IMG/VR virus record: IMGVR_UViG_2657245131_000016
Reading direction: 5' to 3' (one strand)
DNA: 8,928 bases
DNA from: a virus
Lineage: Duplodnaviria > Heunggongvirae > Uroviricota > Caudoviricetes
The position numbers and the translations under genes were made by a program. Of this stretch, positions 233-936 are shown piece after piece; the stretch's first letter is position 1, and the number at the start of each line of letters is the position of its first letter. The notes under the pieces are model-generated. The model was not told the DNA's origin. It made no database searches and was given only the letters and a program-made list of their open reading frames with translations.

Positions 233-296
233 TATTAGCTCCTTCTGATGCCATTCTATTTCAGGAAGGAGTGTCCGTTAAACTCAGGCTACCTCA
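1..296 (-). mobile_element. IS3-family insertion sequence, IS600-like, partial (inner end with terminal inverted repeat; rest lies beyond the window start)
   Basis: The minus strand reads TGAGGTAGCCTGAGTTTAACGGACACTCC... from position 296, a TG-initiated terminal repeat about 64 bp upstream of the orfA start, the usual IS3-family layout. The boundary at 296 is inferred from the TG convention and recalled IS600 end sequence, not from an alignment. Confidence 0.8.
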
Positions 297-507
297 GGTA
301 TGTAATCATTCTGGCAATGCTTAATGCCGCTGCTTTTTCCAGATTGGTGATATCCTGCTCCAGAGCGGACAGATTTTCAGCCTGCTTAGCCCTGGCTTCA
401 TTGGCCCATTTCAGGTCCTGCACCGCCTTAATTTTCTGGTGCATCCACTCATAAAGTTCATCATCGGTATAGTCTGGCGCGATGATGACGGGGTCTCGTT
501 TCTGCAT
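289..507 (-). CDS. hypothetical protein (72 aa), second gene of the leftward early operon; stop codon lies inside the IS terminal repeat
   Basis: ORF with a GGAG Shine-Dalgarno 5 nt upstream of the ATG (complement of 505-507). The product MQKRDPVIIAPDYTDDELYEWMHQKIKAVQDLKWANEARAKQAENLSALEQDITNLEKAAAL... looks like a coiled coil. The last residues and the stop are encoded by IS sequence (289-296), so the native C-terminus may be lost. Confidence 0.5.
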   Translation of the reverse strand: MQKRDPVIIAPDYTDDELYEWMHQKIKAVQDLKWANEARAKQAENLSALEQDITNLEKAAALSIARMITYLR

Positions 508-579
508 GTCGGCTCCTTGTGGTTAGCGTTGCCTGCTTTTTAACCACGTCAGGCGAGGTGGTATCCTCTGAGGGGTCTG

Positions 580-936
580 TTACTCGAGAGGAAATTGGTT
601 ATGAATACAATCAAGTTTTCTTGCCCAGAATGTGGTGGCTAAGTCTTTGACACATCCTTTAAGCCGCAGGGCTCTGACAGTTTCGCGGGAGCCATCTGCA
701 AAAATTGTGGTCACCTTGTAACTGAAGATGAGTCCTCGCAGTTCGATGACGAAATCGTTGACAATATCTTCGGTGCACTCACCAGAGACTTTCTGAAGTA
801 AAGGCGCATACCGCTTAGTTACCGCTCTGATAACTCTTACCTGTCCGGCAATGGCGCTGATATCAATATAAAGCGCCATCGCTGTTTCTTTGCTGATCCC
901 TGGACGCCTTCCATTCTGATGTTTGACTTCGCCCAC
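580..936 (-). CDS. hypothetical protein (118 aa), first gene of the leftward early operon downstream of the repressor; GTG start
   Basis: ORF in the track; the first codon is GTG (complement of 934-936) with an AGAGGA Shine-Dalgarno about 8 nt upstream on the minus strand. No family recognised by eye. Confidence 0.5.
   Translation of the reverse strand: MGEVKHQNGRRPGISKETAMALYIDISAIAGQVRVIRAVTKRYAPLLQKVSGECTEDIVNDFVIELRGLIFSYKVTTIFADGSRETVRALRLKGCVKDLATTFWARKLDCIHNQFPLE

Follow-up and report, generated by a model that had tools for sequence, protein, structure and literature searches.

A probable two-strand coding cassette ahead of ydfC in a Qin-like leftward early operon of an Escherichia coli prophage

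Which proteins are encoded at the head of the leftward early operon in the IMG/VR virus record IMGVR_UViG_2657245131_000016 (Caudoviricetes)? We analyzed a stretch of 8,928 nucleotides (nt) from this record (the window, numbered from its first letter), in which the original prediction had placed two genes with credible ribosome binding sites in the first positions of that operon, had assigned neither to a family, and had suggested that they act on host division or exclude other phages. Both open reading frames (ORFs), 289 to 507 and 580 to 936 on the minus strand, are present and conserved, and the ribosome binding sites were borne out (AAGGAG, 5 nt before the ATG at 507; AGAGGA, 7 nt before the GTG at 936). 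By homology, the ORF at 289 to 507 is ydfC, a named but uncharacterized gene, and this identity makes the prediction as written ordinary. It did not include an antisense ORF nested within 580 to 936 on the plus strand, which belongs to a zinc-ribbon family and appears to share its DNA with a second coding frame. The features at the center of this question are as follows.

580 to 936, minus strand: the sense ORF ("gene B"), 118 amino acids from a GTG at 936, basic (isoelectric point about 9), family phrog_21318
601 to 801, plus strand: the nested antisense gene of the ECs_2282 family, 66 amino acids by six-frame translation, a pseudogene in this copy
640 to 642, plus strand: the TAA nonsense codon E14*, GAA in intact alleles; its effect on the sense strand is the conservative change F98L

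Within E. coli, the pairwise ratio of non-synonymous to synonymous divergence (omega) of the sense ORF is abnormal, at 0.5 to 1.1, because a 66-codon ORF occupies the opposite strand. Synonymous divergence in the 3' half of the sense ORF lies 4 to 6 times below that of its 5' half; recent recombination was considered as the source of this deficit and rejected, since the deficit holds at every comparison depth and maps to the antisense ORF. When nine alleles were translated in all six frames, this ORF was located in an exact codon-antiparallel register with the sense ORF. Its product follows the pattern M(N/S)(T/E)IKFSCPECGGEVFD...AGAICKNCGHLVTEDESSQFDDEIVDNIF...K and combines a CxxC-x21-CxxC motif with an acidic tail (isoelectric point 4.2). 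All lineages examined retain CPEC-x21-C(K/D/G/S)(N/S/D)C, which takes the form CPEC-x21-CKNC at this locus, and the best-conserved "motifs" of the sense protein (YKVTTIFADGS and TTFWARKL) mirror the two zinc knuckles. Intact alleles matched the NCBIfam model NF047912, "ECs_2282 family putative zinc-binding protein," at 60.4 and 50.5 bits (curated cutoff, 37 bits), and NCBI uses this family name in E. coli, Citrobacter, Klebsiella, and Enterobacter. Fainter matches, to the PADLOC candidate PDC-M14A (16 bits, E = 0.002) and to zinc ribbons of the Lar restriction-alleviation type (E values of about 0.01), are probably due to features that zinc ribbons have in common. A full-text literature search for "ECs2282" returned no papers.

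An uninterrupted zinc-ribbon ORF was found at loci of E. coli, Klebsiella, Citrobacter, Enterobacter, and Serratia, and the locus of this cassette occurs in 937 of 5,426 complete E. coli genomes (about 17%). Annotation by the Prokaryotic Genome Annotation Pipeline (PGAP) includes the zinc-ribbon gene in most of the sampled genomes, and the phage records examined carry the longer sense ORF. In the window, the nonsense codon is the sole difference from the O157 allele, which makes this copy of the zinc-ribbon gene a pseudogene as read from its sequence, with the sense ORF intact. A 61-nt sequence bearing the TAA was found, identical, in 516 of 922 locus-carrying E. coli genomes, including O157:H7, O145:H28, O111:H8, and O55:H7 strains. 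The zinc-ribbon frame has acquired two independent nonsense alleles (E14* and E44*), and the sense frame is open in both.

To assess selection on the two frames, we drew 109 loci from genomes, metagenomes, and IMG/VR and obtained from them 41 distinct alleles that were usable over a 270-nt core. A minimum spanning tree served to count substitutions, and these counts are approximate. The rates per site below cover the 64 overlapped codons; a further 26 sense codons are not overlapped by the zinc-ribbon gene.

Synonymous in the zinc-ribbon frame and non-synonymous in the sense frame: 1.0 to 1.1 changes per site
Non-synonymous in the zinc-ribbon frame only: 0.24 to 0.47 changes per site
Non-synonymous in both frames: 0.07 to 0.15 changes per site

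This contrast in rates points to purifying selection on the zinc-ribbon frame in both clades compared (E. coli on one side, Klebsiella/Citrobacter/Enterobacter on the other), with an estimated omega of roughly 0.2 to 0.3; pairwise values within E. coli were 0.08 to 0.17. In keeping with a translated sense frame, the codons TTA, CTA, and TCA are never used in the zinc-ribbon frame within the overlap, though its Leu and Ser codons vary. The sense frame is under mild constraint in the overlap in the Klebsiella/Citrobacter/Enterobacter clade (omega about 0.5 to 0.7). In the sense codons outside the overlap, omega was 0.12 in that clade, with 13/15/37 changes at codon positions 1/2/3, and 0.49 in the E. 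coli clade. The sense frame gave the highest amino-acid identity and BLOSUM score of the six frames in 10/10 deep pairs, and its BLOSUM score exceeded that of column-shuffled alignments (P ≤ 0.001 in nine of the ten pairs, P = 0.0014 in the tenth). It is open in 108 of the 109 related loci and also in Serratia, and in six genera in all. These results suggest that both strands encode proteins, with the zinc ribbon as the dominant constraint on the overlap and the sense protein relaxed in the E. coli lineage. We regard this reading as fairly probable and do not rate it higher because the compared pairs are not independent and the counts are approximate.

The antisense gene is accompanied by candidate signals of its own.

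586 to 592, plus strand: Shine-Dalgarno (SD) sequence GAGAGGA of the zinc-ribbon gene, 8 nt before the ATG at 601, read from the sequence
540 to 567, plus strand: promoter-like element with a −35 TTAACC (540 to 545), a 16-nt spacer, and an extended −10 TGgTATCCT (559 to 567)
543 to 562, plus strand: palindrome ACCAC-N10-GTGGT within the spacer, conserved across genera
851 to 894, plus strand: terminator-like hairpin with an 8-bp stem (851 to 858 with 872 to 879) and a 13-nt loop, followed by the T-rich CGCTGTTTCTTTGCT

A strong SD sequence also precedes the zinc-ribbon gene in Klebsiella, Citrobacter, and Enterobacter alleles. The promoter-like element, which occupies the space separating the sense ORF from ydfC, was compared among E. 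coli, Klebsiella michiganensis, Citrobacter freundii, and Enterobacter loci and keeps the form −35 TT(A/C)ACC and extended −10 TGgTATC(C/T)T, 33 to 34 nt from the ATG. The stem of the hairpin is kept in 9/9 lineages, with one compensatory pair change (UA to CG) and one G-U pair that is possible in the plus-strand RNA only, and the hairpin presumably acts as a terminator. Together, these elements suggest that the zinc-ribbon gene is a compact independent transcription unit facing the early promoter from about 430 bp away. The palindrome bears no relation to the operators of the immunity region (TAGAAnAACCTAAG) and could be the operator of a regulator encoded in the cassette or by the host.

The sense ORF itself has a good SD sequence ahead of GTG 936.

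944 to 949, minus strand: SD sequence AGAGGA of the sense ORF, 7 nt before the GTG, kept in 5/5 divergent E. coli alleles

In one allele the GTG is replaced by ATG. PGAP places the start at ATG 879 (99 amino acids), which has no SD sequence, and the conservation of the upstream SD across alleles supports GTG 936 as the likelier start. The 19 extra N-terminal codons are nevertheless unconserved as protein (variable columns 10/8/10 at codon positions 1/2/3), and homologues in other genera start near the internal Met; a good SD sequence is present at the start in every lineage, although the start position differs. Length alone is no proof of coding here, as the window holds several spurious shadow ORFs of 120 to 150 codons. 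Residues 20 to 118 align with positions 1 to 99 of the 99-position profile of phrog_21318 (E = 8.6 × 10−67), a family without an assigned function, and searches of Pfam, NCBIfam, and PADLOC returned no match for the sense ORF. Its homologues form 23 clusters among 5.8 billion proteins, all from Enterobacteriaceae; a profile search recovered 9 representatives among 1.84 billion, and the family has one species representative in GTDB, a Serratia. An AlphaFold2 model of the sense protein was weak (predicted local distance difference test [pLDDT], 66), with a helix-helix-helix-hairpin-helix order for which no specific fold match was found. Profile searches and structure prediction thus left the sense ORF uncharacterized beyond its PHROG, and the claim that neither product can be assigned was wrong for the other ORF. 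In C. freundii prophages (L032:3495-4019), a phrog_23433 domain precedes the sense ORF in an in-frame fusion; this domain is homologous to the C-terminal half of a 135-amino-acid gene (L002:7563-7970) lying 3' of ydfC/IS600 (BLASTP, E = 1 × 10−12). The fusion suggests that the sense protein and the product of that gene may be functionally linked.

The source of the DNA and the layout of the operon place both genes in a known setting. Bases 1 to 1150 of the window match, at 100% identity, the chromosomes of E. coli O121:H19 strains, in which RefSeq annotates a lambdoid prophage integrated beside ompW. The annotated order from left to right is the transposase of the insertion sequence (IS) IS600, ydfC, a 99-amino-acid hypothetical protein, a helix-turn-helix repressor, a Cro/CI regulator, a YdaT/CII-like protein, and replication genes. 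Beyond the window, to the left of IS600, the parent genome carries a gene for a 135-amino-acid hypothetical protein, dicB, a DUF1482 (ydfD-type) gene, an exonuclease gene, xis, and int. The control region consists of the following elements, of which the promoter and the repeats are consensus matches only.

1144 to 1551, minus strand: DicA-family repressor gene, NF007257 at 241.6 bits over the full length
1016 to 1069, minus strand: dicBp-like early-left promoter with a −35 TTGACC (1045 to 1040), an 18-nt spacer, and a −10 TAAATT (1021 to 1016)
1020 to 1033 and 1056 to 1069: operator-like repeats TAGAAnAACCTAAG flanking the early-left promoter
952 to 1010, minus strand: transcript leader of about 60 nt, near-identical to the leader upstream of ydfA in Qin of K-12 (alignment with NC_000913)

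Related copies of the repeats lie at the rightward promoter, and the Cro protein matches the DicC model NF007282 over its full length (167.6 bits). The full-length matches to the DicA and DicC models identify, at the level of homology, an immunity region like that of Qin, joined to a leftward operon of the dicBF type. Both ORFs lie directly 3' of a sigma-70-like promoter with operator-like repeats and an adjoining DicA-family repressor gene and therefore take the first positions of that operon, so that the proposed equivalence to the ydfA/B/C-dicF-dicB region of Qin held. The alignment with NC_000913 also showed that Qin homology ends at the SD sequence of the first gene and returns at the SD sequence of ydfC; by this comparison, the ORF at 580 to 936 with its flanks is an alternative cassette to ydfA-ydfB. 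The leader contains a hairpin, ACACCGCACGGTGT, and a CCC-GGCGTTAA-GGG element just 5' of the SD sequence of the first gene, and it is kept whichever first gene comes next. In other E. coli prophages (L011:3850-3990, L013:2620-2770, L015:3840-3990, and L017:3830-3990), about 100 to 140 nt of highly conserved sequence, ACCAACCCACCCCGCCCCACAGAACGCAGGGCAATACTTCGAGTTACCAGGCAGTGGTCAGGGG, lie between the early promoter and the sense ORF; this stretch is absent from the window, has no Rfam match at E ≤ 1, and could be a structured leader or a small RNA.

Across the loci compared, the pair of sense and zinc-ribbon genes always adjoins the immunity region, and the repressor types vary (DicA-like and several LexA/S24-like). 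The sense ORF opens the leftward operon in E. coli, C. freundii, K. michiganensis, Enterobacter, and Serratia, and in prophages of K. pneumoniae and C. amalonaticus it is found in the rightward operon, directly after cro. It is always codirectional with the early operon, which places the zinc-ribbon gene antisense to early transcription in every case. In one Enterobacter prophage, sieB precedes the zinc-ribbon gene, with both on one strand.

The second gene of the operon in the window proved assignable.

289 to 507, minus strand: ydfC, 72 amino acids, start ATG at 507
513 to 518, minus strand: SD sequence AAGGAG of ydfC, 5 nt before the ATG, read from the sequence

Its product shares 93% identity with the K-12 YdfC across all 72 amino acids, matches phrog_1744 (E = 9.1 × 10−39, positions 1 to 68 of 68), and is called "protein YdfC" (ydfC) by PGAP/RefSeq; the original prediction had named ydfC as an occupant of this position in Qin without recognizing it here. 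We found 102 protein clusters of YdfC, a family almost confined to E. coli, and the literature on ydfC yielded mention of an uncharacterized gene only, plus a yeast directed-evolution study irrelevant to its native function. The gene occurs after ydfA-ydfB, after ydfA alone, as first gene, or after an ORF of the 580-936 type, and in the window with its parent genome and in six other contexts it sits 5' of dicF/dicB or kilR, promoter proximal in a repressor-controlled early-left operon. Omega for ydfC was 0.23 to 0.6. The N-terminal 24 residues, which begin with the conserved peptide MQKR(D/E)PVIIAPDYTDDELYEWM, are near-invariant, and the helix diverges (omega 0.35 to 0.6). In the first 24 codons (window 436 to 507), synonymous divergence was 0 to 0.18, against 0.5 to 1.6 for the rest of ydfC, which could mark a recombination junction or extra constraint at the nucleotide level. 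AlphaFold2 modeled residues 1 to 14 as extended and 15 to 71 as one long helix (pLDDT, 86.9), and the only matches in the PDB, weak ones at the sequence level, were designed coiled coils. The near-invariant N terminus and diverging helix suggest, together with the model, that YdfC is probably a small coiled-coil adaptor in which a conserved acidic/aromatic binding peptide is carried on an oligomerizing helix.

The 3' end of ydfC in the window is formed by an insertion sequence, a feature that the original prediction had also not listed.

1 to 296, minus strand: end of an IS600 copy (IS3 family, RefSeq), the orfA N terminus reading from 232 downwards

The IS600 terminal inverted repeat TGAGGTAGCC ends at 296, and relatives lacking the IS match the window only from 297 on, which sets the junction at 296/297. 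The repeat begins inside codon 71 of ydfC and supplies codons 71 and 72 and the TAG stop, so that the C terminus ...ITYPR of IS-less relatives becomes ...ITYLR; this is a single change (P71L), the native end is not kept, and the length of 72 amino acids is maintained by chance. IS600 cuts the operon after ydfC, and the genes for the 135-amino-acid protein, a dicF variant, dicB, ydfD, and the exonuclease/recombination functions lie beyond the insertion; early-left transcription is probably polar here as a result. The dicF region of the parent genome is 94.7% identical, and the 3' half of dicF itself has diverged. In the copy of a parent-type prophage without the IS (L002:6900-7000, outside the window), the 5' half TTTCTGGTGACGTTTGGCGG is retained and the 3' half has diverged with indels, which probably explains why an Rfam scan of this relative did not report DicF at the gathering threshold.

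The overall explanation that we favor, and consider likely though by no means assured, is a Qin-type dicBF operon in a prophage at ompW, in which a two-strand cassette stands in place of ydfA-ydfB and is followed by ydfC and the IS600 cut. Under this explanation, the DicA-family repressor would control the leftward promoter, whose transcript begins with the leader common to Qin. From this early promoter the sense strand would give a basic protein of about 93 to 118 amino acids (phrog_21318), and the antisense strand would give the nested acidic zinc-ribbon protein of 66 amino acids, for which a separate promoter-like element, SD sequence, and terminator-like hairpin are in place. From the recurring geometry and the facing promoters, about 430 bp apart, we infer a model of alternate expression of the two products: the zinc-ribbon gene would be expressed as long as the prophage is repressed and the sense ORF once repression is lifted, with transcriptional interference and antisense pairing reinforcing the alternation. 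In the window, the nonsense codon has disabled the zinc-ribbon gene and left the sense ORF intact, with ydfC next in the operon. A stronger version, which we offer tentatively and hold to be possible rather than probable, is a true two-strand gene in which a basic early protein and an acidic zinc-ribbon protein, encoded on opposite strands of the same 200 bp and both functional, are expressed in mutually exclusive prophage states (repressed or derepressed) through convergent promoters; the pair would form a compact toggle or an antisense-coupled antagonist pair that moves among lambdoid phages of at least six enterobacterial genera, always beside the immunity region.

Several observations weigh against these proposals. 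In the E. coli clade, the sense frame is almost unconstrained in the overlap (omega about 1 or above) and no protein-level constraint was seen on its 19-codon N-terminal extension; in this lineage the sense ORF may amount to no more than a spacer that is translated, or a gene in decay. One natural allele (L030) has a broken sense frame and an intact zinc-ribbon gene. Phylogeny correlates the alleles compared, so that pairs are not independent, and the spanning-tree counts are approximate. The antisense promoter-like element has only 4/6 matches in each hexamer, the hairpin has a large loop (13 nt) and a poor, imperfect U tract, and the alternate-expression model is drawn from the arrangement of the sequence elements. 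If only the zinc-ribbon gene were real, the 118-amino-acid ORF would be a shadow ORF that gene callers prefer for its length, 580 to 936 in the window would encode nothing functional, and only ydfC would be left of the two genes. Such a shadow would account for changes in the overlap that follow the antisense frame (54/7/19 at sense positions 1/2/3 in the E. coli clade), for a sense-frame omega of at least 1 there, for sense motifs that mirror the zinc knuckles, for the annotation of the zinc-ribbon gene by PGAP wherever it is intact, and for the unconstrained N-terminal extension; moreover, the conserved stretch at the sense N terminus partly coincides with the plus-strand hairpin. It does not sit well, however, with an omega of 0.12 and an excess of third-position changes (13/15/37) outside the overlap in the non-E. 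coli clade, with a sense frame that outscores the other five in every deep pair and is open in all but one of the loci and in six genera, with a good SD sequence in every lineage despite a shifting start position, or with the in-frame fusion to another domain in Citrobacter. On balance we consider a shadow ORF rather unlikely.

The remaining alternatives concern function. The suggestion that both products are host-directed early proteins, division inhibitors or superinfection-exclusion factors like Kil, DicB, and SieB, fits the position of the genes, as genes of this kind (dicB, kilR, and sieB) occur in the early-left operons of Qin and Rac, relatives of this operon have DicB or KilR downstream, and the Enterobacter zinc-ribbon gene follows sieB; both proteins are also small, fast evolving, and lineage restricted. 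We found no support for it in the proteins themselves. Neither ORF matched DicB (PF05358), KilR (PF27398), or SieB (PF14163) at E ≤ 1, and precomputed Pfam labels in related loci mark neighboring genes as DicB, KilR, and SieB. PADLOC-DB 2.0 gave no match for YdfC or the sense ORF, the only similarity to its models being the 16-bit zinc-ribbon match, and no transmembrane segment was predicted in either of these proteins. Furthermore, when a Plac-driven K-12 operon lacking dicF and dicB still expressed ydfABC (and ydfD), growth, colony-forming units and viability, and morphology were normal (PMC5069750). As this construct includes a YdfC 93% identical to that of the window, YdfC alone, at that level of expression, is not a division inhibitor. 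A host-directed role for both products appears improbable overall. An N-like antiterminator acting on a nut-like site in the conserved leader would likewise suit a first gene in the N position right after the early-left promoter, and the leader offers hairpins and a CGCTAC stretch that is vaguely boxA-like, nut-like elements having been judged by eye only. Yet the N terminus of the sense protein, MGEVKHQNGRRPGISKETA, has no arginine-rich motif (2 Arg in 19 residues) and is its least conserved part, no family match links the sense ORF to N, and the Klebsiella and Citrobacter versions of the gene, which follow cro in the rightward operon, lack this leader. In Qin, this leader stands ahead of ydfA, an unrelated gene, and it therefore belongs to the operon, not to the sense protein. 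We rejected the antiterminator on the missing motif and the common leader and give it hardly any credence. The Qin-type operon with a two-strand cassette thus stays our preferred explanation.

Other features of the prophage lie apart from the cassette. Several relatives carry toxin-antitoxin pairs (PaaA2/RelB-ParE and HigB-HigA) between the repressor gene and the cassette, and the window has none.

Toxin-antitoxin insertions in relatives: L013:2031-2509, L015:3057-3721, L017:3228-3705, L026:1762-2233

Rfam scans of the window and its relatives found only sok and isrC, both elsewhere in the window. The sok antisense RNA (RF01794, 103.9 bits) adjoins a hokD-type toxin gene (window 6431 to 6580 and 6521 to 6733, both plus strand). 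The 5' part of an isrC-type Hfq-binding small RNA (RF01387, 59.7 bits) lies at 8870 to 8928 (plus strand), cut by the end of the window, and in the parent genome an IS3-family transposase is annotated from about the same position. The early-right region carries as cargo the AcfC-family adhesin gene paa (5484 to 6242, plus strand; RefSeq), preceded by a frameshifted fimbrial-protein pseudogene at 4754 to 5323 (RefSeq). At 7561 to 8806, the DUF968 gene is shortened to 330 amino acids, versus 348 in the IS-less relative, and runs into a fragment of the terminase large subunit; the late region of the prophage has therefore been deleted or rearranged.

How the locus relates to known systems can now be stated. 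The operon is a variant of the Qin dicBF operon of K-12 (dicA / ydfA-ydfB-ydfC-dicF-dicB-ydfD), and both ydfC and the ECs_2282 family (NCBIfam) had been named before. The two operons share a DicA-family repressor, a DicC-family Cro, the near-identical leader, a ydfC at 93% identity, and, in the parent genome downstream of the window, dicF, dicB, and a ydfD homologue. They differ in that ydfA and ydfB are replaced here by the sense/antisense cassette, a gene of 135 amino acids is added between ydfC and dicF, IS600 sits at the end of ydfC, and the 3' half of dicF has diverged. The sieB gene of Rac is likewise an early-left gene beside the immunity region (racR) and oriented against the early-left genes (Rac annotation), but it is not inside another ORF, and its larger protein has no sequence similarity to the zinc ribbon, whose ECs_2282 family is not known to exclude phages. 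The pL-nutL-N arrangement of lambda also has a first gene after a repressor-controlled leftward promoter with a structured leader before it; unlike it, the locus here has no arginine-rich motif, no recognizable boxA/boxB, and no homology, and its leader serves another first gene in Qin.

Nested antisense pairs of protein-coding genes in bacteria are disputed, and to our knowledge few are known with signals of selection on both strands. A limited search of the literature turned up no account of the nested arrangement on two strands, of selection acting on its two frames, or of the conserved antisense promoter. The embedded antisense genes reported in E. coli O157:H7 (for example ano/ECs2385 and asa; PMC5960689 and PMC6294744) are similarly short ORFs wholly inside a longer ORF on the opposite strand. 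Those cases reportedly rest on RNA sequencing and ribosome profiling, whereas the present cassette is known from comparative evidence, with purifying selection suggested on both frames across several genera and the embedded gene as the better-conserved partner.

The cassette is small and resides in well-studied E. coli prophages, and natural alleles broken in either frame make the question of dual coding directly testable. It also holds a lesson for annotation: in the sampled RefSeq genomes, which one of the two strands is annotated mostly depends on whether the zinc-ribbon frame is intact, and in the phage records examined the longer ORF is the only one annotated. For the biology of these prophages, the comparison indicates that the promoter-proximal cassette of the toxic dicBF operon is exchangeable, with ydfA-ydfB in one version and the pair of sense and zinc-ribbon genes in the other, and that in O121-type strains a dicBF-type operon has been cut after ydfC by IS600.

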